64,000 bases of DNA from Elusimicrobia bacterium GWB2_63_22 (GCA_001799735.1 MGUA01000034.1:20056-84055), one strand, 5' to 3'. Shown: positions 6,307-12,062, counted from the first letter of the stretch. The notes: generated from the letters alone by a model not told the origin. Translations and numbers: made by a program.

Positions 6307-8124
6307 TTACTGGCTGACGGCGCCTTCGCCGGCTTCTATGGCCTTGAGCTCTTCGGTGTAGGCGGCGATCTTGGCCTCGAGGGCGGCGATCTTGTCGCCG
6401 AGCTCTTTGACCTGGGCGTAATCGGAATGGATCTCGGGCGCGGACATTTTGGCGGCCAGCGTCTCTACCGTCTTGCGCGAGTAGGCTATTTCCTTCTTCA
6501 GGGTCTCGGCGCGGCGGCTTTTCTTGCGGACCTCGGCGTCCTGGCGCTTTTTCTCTTCCCAGTCGGCGCCGTCGGCTTTGGGGGCGGCCTTGGGCTCTTC
6601 TTTCCTGCGCGTGGAGGCGGTCTCGTGCCGGAGCTGCTCCTGGCGGTAGTTGAAGTAATCGTAATTGCCGGGGTAGACGGTGGTCTTGCCCTGCTCGATG
6701 TGCACCACGGAGTCGGCCAGGGCGTTGATGAAGTAGATATCGTGGCTGATGAAGCAGAGGGTGCCTTCGAATTCTTTCAGGGCGCCTATCAGCGCGTCCA
6801 CGCTGGCGATGTCGAGGTGGGTGGTGGGCTCGTCCATCAGGATAACGTTGGGCGGGTCCATGAGCAGCTTTACCAGCATCAGGCGGCTCTTTTCACCGCC
6901 GGAAAGGACCTCGGTCTTCTTGTAGACGTTGTCGCCGGGGAACAGGAAGGTGCCCAGCACGGTGCGCACGGCCAGCTCCGGGTTCATCCGGTCGTTGTCC
7001 ATGGCCTCCTGCAGCACGGTCTTGCGCGGGTCCAGTATGCCCTCGCGGTGCTGGGAGAAGTAGCCGGTCTTAACATTAAGACCGAGCACGCGCTCGCCGG
7101 AGTCCGGCTCTATCACGCCGGCCAGCATCTTGAGCAGGGTGGACTTGCCGGCGCCGTTATGGCCGAGGAAGGCCATCTTCTGGCCGCGGAGCAGCTCGAA
7201 ATCGAAACCCTCGTAGACCTTTATGGGGTCGTGGTCCGGCACGTTGTAGACCTTGCTGATATTTTTCAGTTCCAGCACCTTGGTGCCGGTGCGGTTGGGC
7301 TGAGGGAAGCGCATTTTAACGGTCTTCACTTCCTGGATCAGCTCTATGCGCTCCAGCTTGTCGAGGCGCTTTATCATGCTCTGCACGCGGGCGGCGGTGG
7401 AGACGCGCGCCCGGTTGCGGGCGATGAAGTCTTCCATCTGCGCTATCTCCTCCTGCTGCAGGCGCCAGGCGGAGTAGATCTTCTCTTTCTCGGACTGGCG
7501 CTGGGCCAGGAAATTCTCGTAGTTGCCGTGGTAGACGCGCAGGGTATGGTCCTGCAGGGAAACGATGGCGCTGCAGATCTTGTTGATGAAGTCGCGGTCA
7601 TGCGAGATGACGAAGATGGCGCCCTGGTAGGACTGCAGGTACTCCTCCAGCCACAGCAGCGAGTCCAGGTCCAGGTGGTTGGTGGGCTCGTCGAGCAGCA
7701 GGAGATCGGGCTTCTTGAGCAGCAGCTTGCCCATGGCCACGCGCATGGCCCAGCCGCCGGAGAGGGTGTTGACCCGGCGGGTAAAATCGGTGACCTTGAA
7801 GCCGAGGCCCATCAGGATGGCCTTGCCTTCGGCCTCTATGCGTCCGTCGTAGTCCTCCACGCCGTCGAGGGTCTCTTCTATCACGGTGCGGTCGGAGACC
7901 GGCGGGTTCTCCTGCGGCAGGTAGCCCACCACCACGCCCTTCTTGAACTGGATCTCGCCGTCGTCGGCCTCTTCGGCCCGGAGCATCATCTTGAACAGCG
8001 TGGATTTGCCGGCGCCGTTGGGGCCCACCAGGGCGAAGCGGTCGCCCTCGTTTACCTGCAGCGAGGCGTCCTCGAAGAGGACCTGGGAAGAGAAGGATTT
8101 ATGTACGTTCCTGAGGGTTATCAT
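6307..8124 (-). CDS. ABC-F family ATP-binding protein
   Basis: Two ABC domains (GPNGAGKS/LSGG/LLLDEPTNHLD; GHNGAGKS/LSGGEK/DEPTTHLD), no TM, C-terminal coiled coil; start placed at MITLRN. Confidence 0.93.
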   Translation of the reverse strand: MITLRNVHKSFSSQVLFEDASLQVNEGDRFALVGPNGAGKSTLFKMMLRAEEADDGEIQFKKGVVVGYLPQENPPVSDRTVIEETLDGVEDYDGRIEAEGKAILMGLGFKVTDFTRRVNTLSGGWAMRVAMGKLLLKKPDLLLLDEPTNHLDLDSLLWLEEYLQSYQGAIFVISHDRDFINKICSAIVSLQDHTLRVYHGNYENFLAQRQSEKEKIYSAWRLQQEEIAQMEDFIARNRARVSTAARVQSMIKRLDKLERIELIQEVKTVKMRFPQPNRTGTKVLELKNISKVYNVPDHDPIKVYEGFDFELLRGQKMAFLGHNGAGKSTLLKMLAGVIEPDSGERVLGLNVKTGYFSQHREGILDPRKTVLQEAMDNDRMNPELAVRTVLGTFLFPGDNVYKKTEVLSGGEKSRLMLVKLLMDPPNVILMDEPTTHLDIASVDALIGALKEFEGTLCFISHDIYFINALADSVVHIEQGKTTVYPGNYDYFNYRQEQLRHETASTRRKEEPKAAPKADGADWEEKKRQDAEVRKKSRRAETLKKEIAYSRKTVETLAAKMSAPEIHSDYAQVKELGDKIAALEAKIAAYTEELKAIEAGEGAVSQ

Positions 8125-8298
8125 GGGTGCGCGGCCCGCCTTGCGGGCCTCCAGTTTTAAAATTTTCCGGGAACTAGCAGGATAAATAAGGAAATCAAGC
8201 CTACCGGACCGTCTGCGCATATATTTTAGCATTTTCGCGCCCCCTTTTATATAATGACCGGAGGGAGAGAATACCCGGTTTCACATTACGGAGGCTAA

Positions 8299-8568
8299 AT
8301 GTCCGACACTTTCATAAATATCGCCTGGGCGCTTATTTTCGCGCTGGCCGGCGGCGCGGCGGGCGCCTTCCTGCTGATCTGGTTCTCCTCGCGCATCCCG
8401 TCCGTCTTCAACAAGATCACCCCGGAGATGGACGAGGGCAAGGAGATCATCCGCGGCAACCGCGCCGTGGCTGAATATTTCGGGCGCATCGTCTCGGCCG
8501 CCATACTCGGCGTCAGCGTGATCATCGCGGCCGCCGTGCTGGGCGGCCTGATAGCGGCCCTGCACTGA
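8299..8568 (+). CDS. Small two-helix membrane protein, DUF350-like
   Basis: KITPEMDEGKEIIRGNRAVA between two TM helices matches the DUF350 pattern; GGAGG RBS; stop overlaps next start (TGATG). Confidence 0.75.
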   Translation: MSDTFINIAWALIFALAGGAAGAFLLIWFSSRIPSVFNKITPEMDEGKEIIRGNRAVAEYFGRIVSAAILGVSVIIAAAVLGGLIAALH

Positions 8569-10439
8569 TGCGCTACCTGCTGCTCGCCTTACTGCTGCTC
8601 GTCCCCTCCGCTCCGGCCTGGTCCAGGGCCGGGGGCGGCGGCGGTGGTGGCGGCGGCGGGGGCTGCTTCCCGGCCGGCACGCTCATCACCACCGCGGCGG
8701 GCGGAATACCTATAGAAAAGATCAAGCCCGGCGACACGGTCCTCGCTTTTTCGGAGGACGGCATAGTGCAGGCCGGGGTCAGGCAAACCTACGAGAAGAA
8801 AGACCGCCTGCTGGTCATCCGCACGCCTAAAGGAAAGCTCACCGCCACCTCCGAGCACCCGCTGCTCACGCGCGCCGGCTTTACCGAAGTCCGCGACCTG
8901 AAGAAAGGCATGCAGGTGGCGGTGCTGGAGGACGGCAAGCGCGTCTGGACGAAGATAAAATCCATCAAGCCGGGCGGGGTCGCCCCCGTGTACAACCTGG
9001 AAGTCGCTCCCCCTCACACTTTCATCGCCGACGGGTTCATAGTCCACAACAAGGGCGGTTTCGGCGGGAGCTACGGCGGCGGCTACAGCAGCAGCTACTC
9101 GGGCGGCCGCTACCGCCGGCGCAGCTACGGCCTGATCGACCTGATCTTTATAGGTTTAGCCGTACTGGTTGTTTTTTTTAAGAACATTTTTTCCGGCGGG
9201 CGCGGAGGCGGGGGCGGTATCTGGAGCTGGGGCTCCCCCTCAAAAAAAGCTCCGCCCATGCTGGCCAACGGCGCGGTGACGCCCCGGGCCGAAAGGACCC
9301 TGGACATCATCCGCAGCCTCGCCCGGCGCGACCCGGACTTCGAACCCAACGGGCTTGAGAACCTGGTAAGGAACACTTTCCTGCGCGTACAGGCGGCCTG
9401 GCAGGCGCGGGACTACTCCGCGCTGGCCGGCGTGATGATGCCCAACCTGCACGCCAGCCACAGCGCCAAGGTAGAATCCCTGCGCGCCAGGGGGCAGAAG
9501 AACATGATGGAGGACGTGCAGGTGGGCCACGTGGACTTTGTGCACGTGCGCTGCCCGGAGCAGAGGGAGGGCCGCGCCTTCACCGCGCTGGTAACCGCCT
9601 CCGCGCGGGATTACACTCTGGACGAAAGGCACGGCGGGCTGGTCAGCGGCAGCCGGGACCCGTCCTCCTTCCAGGAATTCTGGACGTTCCACCAGCTCAA
9701 CGGGGGCTGGGCGCTGGCCCGCATCGACCAGCTGGGCGACCTGGATTTTCTCAACGCCCCCAACCTGCCGGCGGAACCTGAAAAGCCCGGGGCTTTCGCC
9801 AAGACCGGCGCAGCAGCTTTCCTGCCGGCCGGCCCCGGGGCCTTCACGGGAGCGGTTCCCGCCGCCGCCCCCACCGCGCCCGGCCTTGACTTCGCCGCCG
9901 CGGCAGCCGCGCTGCAGCCGCAGCAGCCGCCGCCTCCTCCCCCCCGCGAGGCTGAGGGGGTCATGAACCGCCAGAAGATGGAGATCGCCGCCACGCTGGC
10001 CTTTGAAAGCGTCTACGAGGCCTGGGCCAACAACGACAGCTCCCGGCTGAGCGCGGATTATGTCTCGGCCGAGGCGCTGGCCAAACTGAAGCGCGTGATG
10101 GAGGACAGGAAAGCGGAAGGCCTGACCTTCCAGTTCACCAGCCTGTTCACGCGCCGCGCGGAGGTGGTGCTGGCCGTCCCGGCCAGCAAGAGCCGCCTGC
10201 ATATGGACGAATTTACCGCCCGGATAACGGCCACCGCCGTCAGAGCCATGCTGCGCAACGGCAAGACCCTGCACCGGGACACGGCCCCGCAGCCTTTCAC
10301 CGAGTACTGGGTTTTCGGCCGGCAGGACAAGAGCTGGAAATTGAGGGACATCCTGCCCCGCATGGACCAGGAGAGCGAGGACCGCAGCCAGGACGGCGCT
10401 CCCGGCCCCGCTCAGATAGAATGGTACTGGCAATCCTGA
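8568..10439 (+). CDS. Exported Hint (BIL/pretoxin-HINT type) domain protein with TM helix and tandem Tim44-like domains
   Basis: Signal peptide, poly-Gly, CFPAGTLI..TSEHP..VYNLEV..HTFIADGFIVHN, Gly/Ser/Tyr linker, TM, DPDF..VQAAW..FQEFWTF and a second ..FTEYWVFGR..WKL repeat. Confidence 0.85.
   Translation: MRYLLLALLLLVPSAPAWSRAGGGGGGGGGGGCFPAGTLITTAAGGIPIEKIKPGDTVLAFSEDGIVQAGVRQTYEKKDRLLVIRTPKGKLTATSEHPLLTRAGFTEVRDLKKGMQVAVLEDGKRVWTKIKSIKPGGVAPVYNLEVAPPHTFIADGFIVHNKGGFGGSYGGGYSSSYSGGRYRRRSYGLIDLIFIGLAVLVVFFKNIFSGGRGGGGGIWSWGSPSKKAPPMLANGAVTPRAERTLDIIRSLARRDPDFEPNGLENLVRNTFLRVQAAWQARDYSALAGVMMPNLHASHSAKVESLRARGQKNMMEDVQVGHVDFVHVRCPEQREGRAFTALVTASARDYTLDERHGGLVSGSRDPSSFQEFWTFHQLNGGWALARIDQLGDLDFLNAPNLPAEPEKPGAFAKTGAAAFLPAGPGAFTGAVPAAAPTAPGLDFAAAAAALQPQQPPPPPPREAEGVMNRQKMEIAATLAFESVYEAWANNDSSRLSADYVSAEALAKLKRVMEDRKAEGLTFQFTSLFTRRAEVVLAVPASKSRLHMDEFTARITATAVRAMLRNGKTLHRDTAPQPFTEYWVFGRQDKSWKLRDILPRMDQESEDRSQDGAPGPAQIEWYWQS
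8664..9050 (+). other. Hint / bacterial intein-like domain (129 aa, no homing endonuclease)
   Basis: Cys1 (tgc 8664), block B TxxH (ATSEH), block F VYNLEV, terminal His-Asn (cac aac 9045-9050); +1 residue is Lys. Confidence 0.88.
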
Positions 10440-10442
10440 AAT

Positions 10443-10478
10443 AAAAAAACCCCGCGCCTCCCTGGGGGAAGCGCGGGG
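10443..10478 (-). terminator. Intrinsic terminator between convergent genes
   Basis: CCCCGCGC/GCGCGGGG stem with an A7 tract on + (U tract on -). Confidence 0.7.
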
Positions 10479-10498
10479 CGTTCGCCCTGACGGCGGGG

Positions 10499-10954
10499 CT
10501 ATTTTACCCTGTTGAGCATGGGCACTACCGCGTTTATCTTGCCGGCCAGCACGCCGTGCAGGCCCAGCTTTTTGCGCAGCGCCTCGAGGAAGCGGTGTTC
10601 GGCCGTTACCAGCTTGCGGTCGGCGGCCACCATGTATACGGCCCAGGCGTAGGCGGTCTCGCGCAGGCCGGGGGTCAGCAGGGCGGCGGCCGTTTCCAGC
10701 ACGGCGTCCCGGCCCTTGTCGGCTATCGCCGAAGCTATGCAGCCCATATACTCCCCGGCGTCCTCCACTTCTTCGAAGAGCGGGCTGGATACCAGCACGC
10801 CCTGCAGATCGTCGATCTCCTTTTTCTTCAGTTTGCCGTCGGCGGAAACAGCCATGATAGCCACGGCCATAATGGCGTCGGCCGGGGTCAGCAGGGTCTC
10901 CTGCTGGCAGCCGCAGGCGCAGCCGCAGATCTTTTTATCGGTTTTCTTTTTCAT
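10499..10954 (-). CDS. TerB-like (tellurite resistance TerB family) protein with Cys-rich N-terminal tail
   Basis: AVSADGKL..E and VAADRKL..AEHRFL..LR helical-repeat motifs; CGCACGC tail. Confidence 0.75.
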   Translation of the reverse strand: MKKKTDKKICGCACGCQQETLLTPADAIMAVAIMAVSADGKLKKKEIDDLQGVLVSSPLFEEVEDAGEYMGCIASAIADKGRDAVLETAAALLTPGLRETAYAWAVYMVAADRKLVTAEHRFLEALRKKLGLHGVLAGKINAVVPMLNRVK

Positions 10955-11002: not shown

Positions 11003-11362
11003 TCAACCTATAAGCCGCACCTTGTAGCCGGCAGCCTCCAGCTCGGTCTTCACGAACGCCCGGCGGTCGCCCTGCAGCTCCAGCACGCCGTTCTTCACCG
11101 CCCCCCCGGCCCCCAGCCGCTTCTTGAACTTGCTGAGCAGCTCTTCCTTGCCGGCCGGGTGCATGGGCAACTTCTCCACCAGCGTCATGCCGCTGCCTTT
11201 GCCTGTTCTCCTAAATGAGATGCGGACGGGCTCGGTTTGGTTTCTTTTGCGGACCTCTCCCGCCAGGCCCTCGGCGCATTCGCAGGGGGACTTGCCGCAG
11301 TTAGGGCACTCCACCTTCCCGTCTGGACCGGTGGAATAAACAAGCCTGTCGTTATCTCCCAT
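11003..11362 (-). CDS. yciH: SUI1/YciH family translation initiation factor
   Basis: RLVYST, CPNCGKSPCEC, KKRLGAGGAVKNGVLELQGD. Confidence 0.85.
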   Translation of the reverse strand: MGDNDRLVYSTGPDGKVECPNCGKSPCECAEGLAGEVRKRNQTEPVRISFRRTGKGSGMTLVEKLPMHPAGKEELLSKFKKRLGAGGAVKNGVLELQGDRRAFVKTELEAAGYKVRLIG

Positions 11363-12062
11363 TAGCCGCCCCCTCCCTGGCCAGCAGGCCTTCCAGCGCC
11401 CGCATGTCCGCCTGGAACACCGGGCTTTTGCGGTAGCGTTTATAAAGTTTTTCGGCCAGTTTTTTGCCGGCCTCTATGTCGGAGGGATGGTGCACCCCGC
11501 CTATCACGCGGTCCAGGGCGGCCTCGTCGGCGCGGGCGAAGAATTCTTTCTTGCGGGACGGCACCAGGTCCGCCAGCATCAGCGCGAACAGCCGGGAGAT
11601 GGTGGCGTGGCCGCTGGGATAGGCGAGCCCGCCGATGCGCCCCAGGCACGGATCCAGCGCCGGGTCGCGCAGGAACGGGCGCTGCCTTTTAAACATATCC
11701 TTAATATCCGCCGCCACCCCGTCTGTCTCGGTCTTTACCCTCTGCAGGACGGCCGCGGCGGCTGCGGGCAGGGGCGTGGGGAAAGGGCTTATATCGCCGA
11801 AGAACTCCTCGTAACCGGCGTGCGCCCCGGCGTTCGCCCTGGCGCACTGCTCCGCCGTGCGCCGGTTCTGCCAGCTCTCTATGGCGGCCAGGTCCCTGCG
11901 GTCCGCCCGGGAGCCGGCGGCGGGCGGGGCCGGGAAATCCGGCATCCGCTGCTGGTCGGCCGTTATATAATAGGTGGTGCGCGGTATTATCCACTCTTCC
12001 GCGCCCGCCAGGGCCGGAGCCAGCAAGACCGCCGCTATCAGGATGTGCCGGAGAATTTTCAT
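11352..12062 (-). CDS. Exported PAP2 family (class A-like) acid phosphatase
   Basis: Signal peptide; KDMFKRQRP, YPSGH, RVIGGVHHPSD. Confidence 0.9.
   Translation of the reverse strand: MKILRHILIAAVLLAPALAGAEEWIIPRTTYYITADQQRMPDFPAPPAAGSRADRRDLAAIESWQNRRTAEQCARANAGAHAGYEEFFGDISPFPTPLPAAAAAVLQRVKTETDGVAADIKDMFKRQRPFLRDPALDPCLGRIGGLAYPSGHATISRLFALMLADLVPSRKKEFFARADEAALDRVIGGVHHPSDIEAGKKLAEKLYKRYRKSPVFQADMRALEGLLAREGAANGR

Follow-up and report, generated by a model that had tools for sequence, protein, structure and literature searches.

Near-invariant Gly/Cys...His-Asn/Lys junctions in a Tim44-linked Hint family point to a possible lysine-dependent self-excision outside the cytoplasm

A membrane protein of Elusimicrobia bacterium GWB2_63_22 has a Hint domain within its glycine-rich leader, and the near-invariant Gly/Cys...His-Asn/Lys junctions of this domain and its relatives (slashes mark the domain borders) point to an undescribed, lysine-dependent self-excision outside the cytoplasm. 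The gene, here called gene B, lies in a stretch of 64,000 nucleotides that was analysed as a whole (the window). Its Hint is not a sporadic insertion; rather, the comparison of homologues places it in a large and apparently undescribed family of Tim44-linked Hints, whose members have between 0 and 5 tandem Hints of three position-specific types. Literature searches, judged by title and abstract over the papers listed, found nothing on the combination of Hint and Tim44, nor anything relevant that pairs Tim44, Hint domains, inteins, DUF350 and LemA.

The junctions were compared over 209 complete Hints, taken from 120 homologues among the matches listed together with the protein of the window. 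Cys1 is present in 202 of the 209 and all 202 have Lys at +1, with Gly at -1 in 206/209 and Gly at +2 in 202/209. When representatives are added there are 345 Tim44-linked Hints, 337 with the combination Cys/His-Asn/Lys, one with Ser/His-Asn/Lys and seven that lack the nucleophile; the +1 Lys accompanies a position-1 Cys or Ser in 338/338 Hints and is found in 0/7 of those that have neither, which carry Tyr or Arg instead. The seven nucleophile-less Hints belong to three clades and the poly-Gly run is gone in all of them, as is the block-B Thr in two of the three clades, with His-Asn and the remaining domain retained. As Cys1, oligo-Gly and Lys+1 are lost together they behave as one functional unit, the co-variation resting on approximately three independent loss events given that related sequences are not independent. 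The nucleophile-less Hints nonetheless stay well conserved, and therefore the domain must have a role besides re-ligation.

Where Hints occur in tandem the spacers between them are Lys-Gly(1-6), and at least one Hint is present in 136 of the 145 full-length proteins analysed. The Hint-less relatives, which are nested at least three times within the one-Hint clade of the tree, show a clean alignment gap from Cys33 to Lys162 inclusive, such that the leader is joined straight to the linker. None of the sequence-based grounds on which the preliminary description of this DNA would have been refuted, a sporadic, decaying insertion among them, is seen: a Hint profile match is present and both the catalytic residues and the linkage to the neighbouring gene are conserved.

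Nearly all of the sequence features in that description were recovered in their places by ORF reading, profile searches and an AlphaFold2 model. Gene A (8299..8568) encodes 89 aa and gene B (8568..10439) 623 aa. The two lie on the plus strand, as do the features of gene B given below, and form the two-gene arrangement that had been proposed, the stop of the one and the start of the other having one base in common (TGATG). Gene B begins M-R-Y-L6 and its residues 1-19 (MRYLLLALLLLVPSAPAWS, 8568..8624) read as a signal peptide with a putative cleavage site, a feature kept in homologues, Hint-less ones included. The leader or N-extein, Arg20-Ala21-Gly11 (residues 20-32, 8625..8663, with the poly-Gly run G22..G32 at 8631-8663), has a mean pairwise identity of 0.97 over 50 homologues. 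The Hint domain of 129 aa follows (residues 33-161, 8664..9050) and contains Cys33, Thr94-Ser-Glu-His97 (TxxH) and His160-Asn161; by type it belongs with the membrane-proximal "last" Hints, and Cys33 and Thr94-Ser-Glu-His97 fall in columns at least 90% conserved over the 209 Hints. After Lys162, the +1 residue (9051..9053), the protein runs into GGFGGSYGGGYSSSYSGGRYRRRS, in a Gly/Ser/Tyr-rich linker (residues 163-188, 9054..9131, pLDDT <50) that ends RYRRRSYG, and then into a transmembrane helix (residues 189-204, 9132..9179) which AlphaFold2 models as a helix and which holds the most hydrophobic 18-mer (Kyte-Doolittle mean 2.55).

The rest of the protein is made up of two Tim44-like domains, at residues 234-388 (9267..9731; best PF04280 stretch 248-387, pLDDT mostly >90) and 468-596 (9969..10355; the second PF04280 stretch), and a C-terminal IEWYW motif in which W619, Y620 and W621 are near-invariant. 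The Pfam match of PF04280 is strong and in two stretches (E 5.1e-28, 98.5 bits against a cut-off of 29.6), and AlphaFold2 gives a Tim44-like fold at 234-388 and at 468-596, and a Hint fold over residues 31-163 with pLDDT >90. The claimed domain order, from signal peptide through Arg-Ala-Gly11, Hint, Lys, linker and transmembrane helix to two Tim44-like domains, is correct.

The Hint of gene B is of the type-A BIL / PT-HINT kind, as had been suggested from Cys1, TxxH, His-Asn and a +1 residue other than Cys, Ser or Thr. The Hint profile search that had been recommended finds a match in PT-HINT PF07591 (36.5 bits, cut-off 27.7, residues 39-162), and Hint_2 (33.2 bits, cut-off 28.4) and, in NCBIfam, the intein C-terminal region TIGR01443 (26.3 bits, cut-off 15.6) are also above their cut-offs, with the Pfam models Intein_splicing (30.9 bits, cut-off 35.8) and Hint PF01079 (19.3, cut-off 29.7) below theirs. 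A Foldseek search of the PDB returned mini-inteins and BIL domains, with target-normalised TM scores of 0.74-0.90 in the top 19 ranks and E values down to 3e-11. The best structural and sequence matches are the class 1 mini-inteins NpuDnaB (4o1r) and Mtu RecA (3ifj; TM 0.84-0.87, E 1.4e-8), which have Cys1, TxxH and His-Asn in common with gene B. Unlike these, the Hint of gene B would be exported and does not interrupt an essential cytoplasmic enzyme at a conserved site, being placed instead in a low-complexity Gly-rich leader. Furthermore the +1 Cys, Ser or Thr of a canonical intein was found in 0/345 Tim44-linked Hints, and Pfam matched no homing endonuclease family in gene B, where the domain is only 129 aa.

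Among the BILs, that of Clostridium thermocellum (PDB 2LWY) is matched by Foldseek at TM 0.82 and 30% identity, and by phmmer over residues 33-161 (E 1.7e-7), and in keeping with type-A BILs generally the Hint of gene B has Cys1, TxxH, a terminal His-Asn and no +1 Cys, Ser or Thr, in a host protein that is probably exported. It differs from them in its near-invariant junctions (Gly at -1, Lys at +1, Gly at +2), in its fixed-order tandem arrays of three paralogous types with spacers that are solely Lys-Gly(1-6), in its host, a conserved membrane protein of the Tim44-like kind whose small partner is constant, rather than a hypervariable adhesin or toxin, and in a vertical inheritance that spans seven phylum-level labels of record titles. 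BIL2 of the Tetrahymena thermophila BUBL protein (PDB 6Y75 and 6TMM) appears at Foldseek ranks 12 and 18, and PMC8616854 describes a BIL thioester resolved by a lysine amine, an isopeptide being formed on the Lys epsilon-amine, with no ATP and no +1 Cys, Ser or Thr. BIL2 is however eukaryotic, has ubiquitin-like domains on either side and attaches a folded Ubl to other proteins, whereas here the N-extein would be bare oligoglycine (the leader is Arg-Ala-Gly11, with no folded ubiquitin-like domain in the sequence or the AlphaFold2 model), the candidate Lys is the +1 residue and the setting would be the bacterial envelope.

PT-HINT, the best Hint model for gene B, is also the model of the pretoxin-HINT domains of the CdiA, Rhs and Maf type. 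In contrast to those toxins there is no toxin domain past the Hint of gene B in Pfam and no immunity gene, in agreement with the preliminary description; only Tim44 domains follow, and the next gene 3' of gene B is convergent and DUF533/TerB-like. Nor is a Hedgehog-type layout present, as no cargo domain precedes the Hint, and a linker and transmembrane helix come after it, where a Hedgehog Hog domain has a sterol-recognition region.

The host protein itself resembles bacterial Tim44-like proteins in its two PF04280 domains and in its layout of signal peptide, "RAGGG" Gly-rich leader, transmembrane helix and Tim44-like domain, and is set apart from them by the duplication of the Tim44 domain, the Hints in the leader and the linked DUF350-like gene. 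It does not reach the NCBIfam cut-offs of NF033778 (TimA, 29.8 against 200) or NF033779 (Tim44/TimA adaptor, 51 against 80). Among the seven more distant Elusimicrobia Tim44-like ORFs listed, five start with signal peptide, RAGGG and a Gly/Ser/Tyr stretch and have no Hint, which bears out the view that the Hint sits inside a generic leader.

In the product of gene A two hydrophobic helices are accompanied by the conserved loop DEGKEIIRGN-AVA-YFGRIV, and column identity averages 78% over 18 homologues. It had been called DUF350-like, and this stands as a distant similarity, PF03994 matching 4/18 of the homologues (best E 4.7e-5), and falls as a firm assignment, since the copy in the window is not matched at E<=1. 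Indeed a search of the source genome at E<=10 found PF03994 in four places with gene A not among them, a Smithellaceae copy of gene A scores 23.7 bits against a cut-off of 26 over profile positions 11-65 of 133, and the Atlas cluster of the protein has DUF350 on 33% of its 91 members. With the window copy unmatched and homologues few or below threshold a firm DUF350 label was rejected; gene A would be a distant, half-size, borderline relative. The gene linkage is strongly conserved: the gene B homologue is preceded by one of gene A in 20/20 loci of a first set and in 69 of the 70 loci of a second set that have upstream sequence, the record titles of those loci bearing seven phylum-level labels. 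We infer a bicistronic membrane module of which gene A is the constant partner and in which the two products may bind each other; a complex prediction for gene A with gene B residues 165-623 gave a score of 0.00, which is uninformative on binding either way.

The history of the Hints can be read from their position in the arrays. In the Hint tree (FastTree, midpoint root, as for all trees) 38 of the 43 "first" Hints form one clade and 38 of the 43 "second" Hints another, and a third clade takes in every "last" Hint (43) and every "single" Hint (61), that of gene B included. The Hint of the window, which had been taken for a single insertion, is instead all that survives of an ancestral array in which three Hints each had a position-specific type. 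It is under the same purifying selection as the Tim44 domains: over 50 sequences mean pairwise identity is 0.61 in the Hint and, in the two Tim44 domains, 0.55 and 0.64; median dN/dS is 0.27 in the Hint, 0.29 and 0.25 in those two domains and 0.52 in the interdomain linker, values that are rough because dS is near 1. The Hint is not a mobile element, as there is a single genome copy (one weak match, E 0.009, being the only other in the source genome), no endonuclease, no G+C anomaly of the kind that would mark a recent insertion (0.62-0.67 in the Hint and 0.61-0.73 around it), and clades that follow position.

Direct repeats of Gly codons, 72% identical, flank the Hint at 8633-8664 and 9053-9084. 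The contigs of four DNA runs, searched at 85% likeness, indicate that related strains cover the stretch piecewise, with breaks at the poly-Gly repeat (8614-8670). No contig in the four runs joins precisely over the Hint (8664 to 9053), a result uninformative on a Hint-less allele, and the joints listed, between which the sequence is unknown, are probably from diverged relatives.

That the type-A BIL-like domain removes itself once it has been exported, and that the amine of Lys162 rejoins the oligoglycine leader, is a proposal to which we give about an even chance. The Sec-type signal peptide would bring leader, Hint and Gly/Ser/Tyr linker outside the cytoplasmic membrane, with the single transmembrane helix as anchor and both Tim44-like domains on the cytoplasmic face. 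Cys33 would then attack the carbonyl of Gly32 and an N-S acyl shift would give an oligoglycyl thioester, cyclisation of Asn161 would cut the Asn161-Lys162 bond, and the thioester would be captured by an amine of Lys162, either the freed alpha-amine or the epsilon-amine. The Hint would be freed and the leader rejoined to the linker, giving a mature protein equivalent to the Hint-less relatives plus one Lys. These steps follow the scheme of type-A BIL splicing in PMC4031507, where a thioester forms, Asn cyclises and the amine that this frees attacks.

Topology had been questioned on account of the RYRRR patch before the transmembrane helix. The patch is lineage-specific, and the family-wide mean of Lys plus Arg is 1.9 on the N side of the helix and 2.5 on the C side (fewer on the N side in 90/161 proteins, more in 50/161), a bias that fits an N-out, C-in topology. 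The worry is thereby softened, yet the copy in the window, with four on the N side and two on the C side, itself goes against N-out.

Two outcomes of processing had been put forward, rejoining of RAG11 to KGG and ligation in trans. Rejoining is favoured by comparison, because the Hint-less relatives have the exact junction and because Cys1, poly-Gly and Lys+1 are lost together, whilst nothing that was found supports transfer to peptidoglycan or protein. In such a transfer an outside amine, on a peptidoglycan stem peptide, phosphatidylethanolamine or a partner protein, would attack the Cys33 oligoglycyl thioester and become attached covalently to the leader or to an uncleaved signal-anchor, in the manner of cholesterol transfer by Hedgehog or of the ubiquitin-like conjugation carried out by BUBL. 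We think this improbable, even though the Hedgehog and Tetrahymena BIL2 thioesters are described in the sources consulted as captured by foreign nucleophiles, the -1 Gly would leave an unhindered thioester, the site of reaction would be extracytoplasmic, and a pilin-like protein of a related genome (L027) ends in a GGG/C...HN/K Hint with N-terminal cargo that resembles Hedgehog. In the Tim44-linked proteins there is no cargo, the N-extein being just Arg-Ala-Gly11 after the signal peptide or Lys-Gly(1-6) between Hints; the strict coupling of Lys+1 to Cys1 points to an internal acceptor, and the Hint-less relatives correspond to the internally rejoined product. Against self-excision itself it can be noted that a rejoined leader of 13 residues is without obvious value to the mature protein, and that Hint-less relatives and nucleophile-less Hints show the reaction to be dispensable in some lineages.

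Those nucleophile-less Hints also bear on the idea of a self-removing pro-domain, in which the Hint would do no more than cleave. Cyclisation of Asn161 would free the membrane protein, whose N-terminus would now be Lys-Gly-Gly, hydrolysis would resolve the thioester, the short leader would be discarded, and the Hint would serve as an export or folding aid, a timer or, later, a soluble periplasmic domain. Their His-Asn and fold-wide conservation are what a cleavage-only role would preserve, the fixed order of three Hint types suggests that the domains themselves matter, and the products of characterised type-A BILs are, according to reviews, mainly cleaved rather than spliced. C-terminal cleavage alone, however, needs no Cys1, -1 Gly or +1 Lys, which are invariant together in 337/345 Tim44-linked Hints and lost together, and we regard the pro-domain as somewhat unlikely, if the foremost of the alternatives to self-excision. 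A non-catalytic structural role, with the Hint staying attached as a periplasmic module that may, for example, bind an envelope component, is hardly credible: nucleophile-less Hints are indeed still conserved, but a structural domain needs none of Cys1, Thr-x-x-His and His-Asn, all kept in those same 337 Hints. It would also seem improbable, to much the same degree as transfer to an outside amine, that the Hints are selfish or neutral passengers which persist, with no benefit to the host, by splicing cleanly from a tolerant low-complexity linker. Hint number does vary from 0 to 5 in relatives with several losses, Hint-less orthologues retain gene A and the locus (L013, L056, L058 and L059), and the direct repeats beside the Hint would favour clean deletion. 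A useless element in a deletion-tolerant linker should nevertheless go fast, and most proteins keep theirs; moreover the Hints have neither a homing endonuclease nor a second genome copy, they track the host tree with position-specific clades held across phyla, their dN/dS equals that of the host domains, and copies without the nucleophile show no decay.

Returning to self-excision, a more novel form of it is that the invariant +1 Lys serves as branch nucleophile in protein splicing of a new kind, its epsilon-amine attacking the Gly thioester either ahead of Asn cyclisation or following it, which we judge distinctly unlikely. If true, the leader, and each Lys-Gly(n) spacer in tandem arrays, would be isopeptide-linked, and bacteria would possess, outside the cytoplasm, an equivalent of BUBL chemistry whose acceptor is part of the splice site itself. 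In a bolder variant a Lys-Gly(1-3) spacer, placed between the Asn of one Hint and the Cys of the next and cut on its N side, which would have a free amine and a C-terminal thioester, could cyclise, and an array would then be a natural generator of small cyclic Lys/Gly peptides.

According to the literature as far as it was consulted, the use of BIL domains to their hosts has been unclear since they were first described, the characterised ones being found in variable secreted proteins and mostly cleaving. The Tim44-linked family provides a good test case, with fixed Gly/Cys...His-Asn/Lys-Gly junctions, a constant host module, vertical inheritance and purifying selection, and with natural controls in members that have 0, 1, 2, 3, 4 or 5 Hints and in Cys-less and Lys-less variants. 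Were Lys+1 the acceptor, this would be an extracytoplasmic splicing chemistry that does without a C-extein side-chain nucleophile, of relevance to traceless Gly-Lys protein ligation and to envelope-protein maturation. The family may also offer an initial clue to what bacterial Tim44-like, DUF350 and LemA proteins do.

Finally, a promoter-like site (TTAGCA, an 18 nt spacer and TATAAT, 8226..8255, plus strand) with 10/12 consensus matches lies upstream of gene A; it is a consensus match alone, the region having two such sites where shuffled sequences have 0.3 on average. Directly past the gene B stop, between the convergent genes, is a G+C-rich, terminator-like hairpin of 14 pairs (10449..10479, assigned to neither strand), scored on the minus strand with a T-run, whereas on the plus strand an A-run precedes it. 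The DUF533/TerB-like neighbour was rejected as a third component, as it is adjacent in 6/30 loci of the first set (L022 and 5 of the 20 in which the gene B homologue is full) and in 4/78 of the second. The host module often has a LemA gene in front of it.

The gene pair lies on the forward strand and consists of a small gene A (8299-8568, 89 aa) and gene B (8568-10439, 623 aa), both taken from an ORF listing of the raw sequence and sharing a single base where one ends and the other starts (TGATG); it is flanked upstream by a promoter-like site at 8226-8255 and downstream by a strong hairpin at 10449-10479. Gene B opens with MRYLLLALLLLVPSAPAWS, which judged by eye resembles a signal peptide, followed by a leader of Arg20-Ala21 and eleven Gly (Gly22-Gly32, encoded by 8631-8663), a Hint domain with Cys33, Thr94-Ser-Glu-His97 and a terminal His160-Asn161, the +1 residue Lys162, a Gly/Ser/Tyr linker with RYRRRSYG at its end, a hydrophobic helix at residues 189-204 and two globular regions. 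In Pfam the protein matches Tim44 over two stretches (E 5.1e-28), PT-HINT at 36.5 bits against a cut-off of 27.7, and Hint_2 at 33.2 bits against one of 28.4. Among NCBIfam models, that for the intein C-terminal region exceeds its cut-off, and those for TimA fall short. An AlphaFold2 model built from an alignment of 61 sequences (mean pLDDT 77.9) places the Hint at 31-163 and Tim44-like domains at 234-388 and 468-596, mostly with pLDDT >90, with the leader, linker and interdomain segments disordered. [quoted passage not shown] The layout given in the preliminary description, two genes with a signal-peptide-like start, Gly11, Hint, Lys, transmembrane helix and two Tim44-like domains in the second, is thus confirmed, with a caveat on the DUF350 label of gene A.

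By every sequence and fold test the Hint is a type-A BIL domain. Comparable tests class it neither with canonical inteins nor with pretoxin-HINT toxins, Hedgehog Hog domains or BUBL units. In the open-access papers searched, no account of a Hint/Tim44-like architecture was found. New with respect to the published work found are the fixed junction Gly/Cys...His-Asn/Lys-Gly, the tandem arrays in fixed order, and the conserved host that is no toxin together with its partner gene; the Tim44-linked Hint is a real and conserved domain, belonging to a self-processing kind already known, in a form apparently not described before.

A homology search with gene B returned 152 hits, and the 120 listed come mostly from Elusimicrobia MAGs, with some from Thermodesulfobacteriota and Planctomycetota. 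They include a one-Hint class of ~570-670 aa with the N-terminus SP-RAG(6-11)/C...HN/KGG, a long class of 840-1016 aa with 3-4 Hints in tandem, and a Hint-less class of 470-490 aa with the N-terminus SP-RAGGGGGGGGGFSGG...; in a few homologues Leu or Gly replaces Cys1. The 78 loci fetched from GTDB species genomes carry record titles of Elusimicrobiota, several Desulfobacterota families, Verrucomicrobiota, Lentisphaerae, Phycisphaerales, Terriglobia and Legionella species. Within the window's phylum 71 of 401 sampled genomes (its own included) match at E<=0.001, those outside its family being mostly weak with partial coverage of the query, and a match occurs in 15 of the 19 other members of its genus. 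The window's genome has one copy of gene B, and no further Hints were found in it apart from a weak match at E 0.009.

The junctions are almost invariant. The window's protein and the 120 listed homologues together yield 209 complete Hints; Cys1 is present in 202, every one of which has Lys at +1 (202/202), with Gly at -1 in 206/209 and at +2 in 202/209. Only Lys-Gly(1-6) separates tandem Hints, and the spacer that follows the first Hint is 'KG' in 39 of 48 cases. When representatives are added, giving 345 Tim44-linked Hints, 337 are of the Cys/His-Asn/Lys type, one is Ser/His-Asn/Lys, and the other seven, which we call nucleophile-less, all have Tyr or Arg at +1. The Hint is conserved to the same degree as the Tim44 domains, with a mean pairwise identity in 50 one-Hint sequences of 0.61 against 0.55 and 0.64, and median dN/dS is 0.27 for the Hint, 0.29 and 0.25 for the Tim44 domains and 0.52 for the interdomain linker, rough relative figures from 184 pairs at 20 loci, given that dS is ~1 and that some genomes are represented twice among the loci. 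There is no G+C anomaly over the Hint, which is being maintained and is not decaying. The GGC/GGT repeat encoding the Gly run (8614-8670) is a site at which public assemblies of related strains break, and in close homologues the run varies from 6 to 11 Gly; together the breaks and the length variation suggest slippage.

In a tree of the 209 Hints the domains cluster by array position: 38 of 43 'first' Hints fall together, 38 of the 43 'second' Hints make up a clade of their own, and a third clade holds all 43 'last' Hints together with all 61 single ones. The tree of the Tim44 region from 145 full-length proteins (both trees were made with FastTree and rooted at the midpoint) has a one-Hint clade of 70 tips, support 0.985, nested in a grade of proteins with 2-5 Hints. 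These position clades and this nesting make the window's Hint the remaining member, the one next to the membrane, of an old array of three. Reduction continues in its lineage, where nine Hint-less proteins arise at at least three places, and seven nucleophile-less ones at three places, within the one-Hint clade.

These natural variants bear on function. In Hint-less relatives the alignment gap runs exactly from Cys33 to Lys162; apart from the missing Lys they would be identical to the rejoined product. The Hint-coding DNA lies between direct repeats of Gly codons (8633-8664 and 9053-9084, 72% identical), which could be the source of such deletions. Nucleophile-less Hints have lost both Cys1 and Lys+1 as well as the poly-Gly run, the signal peptide then abutting the Hint, and in two of three such clades the block-B Thr is also gone. 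Joint loss, in about three independent events, suggests that Cys1, the oligo-Gly run and Lys+1 work together as a unit, which is what resolution of a Gly thioester by the Lys amine would lead one to expect. Since the terminal His-Asn persists in these Hints along with the remainder of the domain, the domain is probably still useful after the unit is lost, most simply for C-terminal self-cleavage or in a structural role.

According to the review PMC4031507, type-A BILs splice by an N-terminal thioester, Asn cyclisation and attack by the freed amino group, and PMC7664689 is in accord. We regard as the best explanation, at roughly even confidence, that the Hint would excise itself after export and that excision would be accompanied by re-ligation through Lys162. 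The review also reports that cleavage products predominate among type-A BILs, and a Hint acting as a pro-domain, with cleavage only, is the most credible of the other readings, albeit a good deal less probable than self-excision with re-ligation. The Tetrahymena BUBL BIL2 domain, according to PMC8616854, makes an isopeptide bond onto a Lys epsilon-amine; splicing through the Lys epsilon-amine here, or the formation of cyclic Lys/Gly peptides in arrays, is a rather doubtful proposition. Unlikely, and to an equal extent, are the trans-ligation of an oligoglycyl thioester and a Hint that is simply a selfish passenger; a non-catalytic domain is very improbable.

The doubt over topology in the preliminary description holds for the window's protein, which has four Lys and Arg before the transmembrane helix and two after. 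Across 161 family members the averages are 1.9 before and 2.5 after, with the smaller count on the N side in 90 proteins and the larger one there in 50. This family-wide bias fits a Hint outside and Tim44 domains inside.

Gene A had been described as DUF350-like. The window's copy has no match to PF03994 (DUF350) in either the Pfam search or that of its own genome, whereas four of 18 homologues do match, one copy reaches 23.7 bits against a cut-off of 26, and in the Atlas cluster containing gene A DUF350 is annotated on 33% of 91 members. Elsewhere the window's genome has three above-cut-off DUF350 matches (C32:53505-54326 and C17:7428-7877), two of them in tandem inside one 282-aa ORF, their position unrelated to the Tim44-like gene. 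Gene A is highly conserved, the mean column identity of 18 homologues being 78%. Immediately upstream of gene B, and in the same orientation, a gene A homologue is present at 20/20 loci of the window's family, including Hint-less (L013) and multi-Hint (L016, L017, L019, L020) forms, and likewise at 69 of 70 GTDB loci whose sequence extends upstream (the exception is L077; eight further loci begin at the gene itself), although by ORF extents it is not tightly adjacent in four of the 69 (L062, L063, L079, L109). Linkage to gene A is therefore a property of the Tim44-like protein itself and not of its Hint.

At 24 of the 78 loci (L035-L112), all non-Elusimicrobia, a LemA gene stands immediately before the pair (for example L074:3026-3580, PF04011, E 1.1e-53); there is none beside the pair in the window. 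Downstream and convergent in the window is a DUF533/TerB-like gene (10499-10954, minus strand; 24.7 bits against a cut-off of 29.6, TerB 16.7 bits), a neighbour shared by 6 of the 30 loci of the first set, namely L022 and five of the 20 whose gene B homologue is full, and by 4 of the 78 loci of the second. A Hint-less Tim44-like protein from another Elusimicrobia family (L023:394-2250, minus strand) carries a fused C-terminal DUF533/TerB-like segment, below cut-off. Neighbour and fusion could hint at a functional link, the neighbour being kept only in close relatives. The remaining neighbours, all on the minus strand, are ordinary: an ATPase of ABC-F type (6307-8232), which is divergent from gene A, a SUI1-family protein (11003-11362) and a PAP2-family phosphatase (11352-12062). 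As far as locus clustering shows, none of them stays with the module in other phyla.

A whole-library search with the Hint only gave 8258 proteins at E<=1e-3, a number that falls to 552 at E<=1e-10 and to 51 at E<=1e-30; the best matches are Tim44-linked proteins with 2-5 Hints. Three giant proteins without a Tim44 region, P0192 (4119 aa), P0213 (1757 aa) and P0181 (1435 aa), have 4-5 Hints, those of P0192 and P0213 being of the Cys...His-Asn/Lys type and two of four in P0181 having Lys at +1, so the Lys+1 Hint clade extends beyond the Tim44 family; the large proteins P0174, P0178 and P0201 have Cys...His-Asn/Cys, that is intein-type, junctions. Finally, a 452-aa ORF at locus L027 is pilin-like, with an FTLVEMVV-type N-terminus, a Cys-rich middle and a C-terminal Hint whose junctions (GGG/C...HN/K) are of the same type with just six residues beyond it, a layout of N-terminal cargo and C-terminal Hint like that of Hedgehog.
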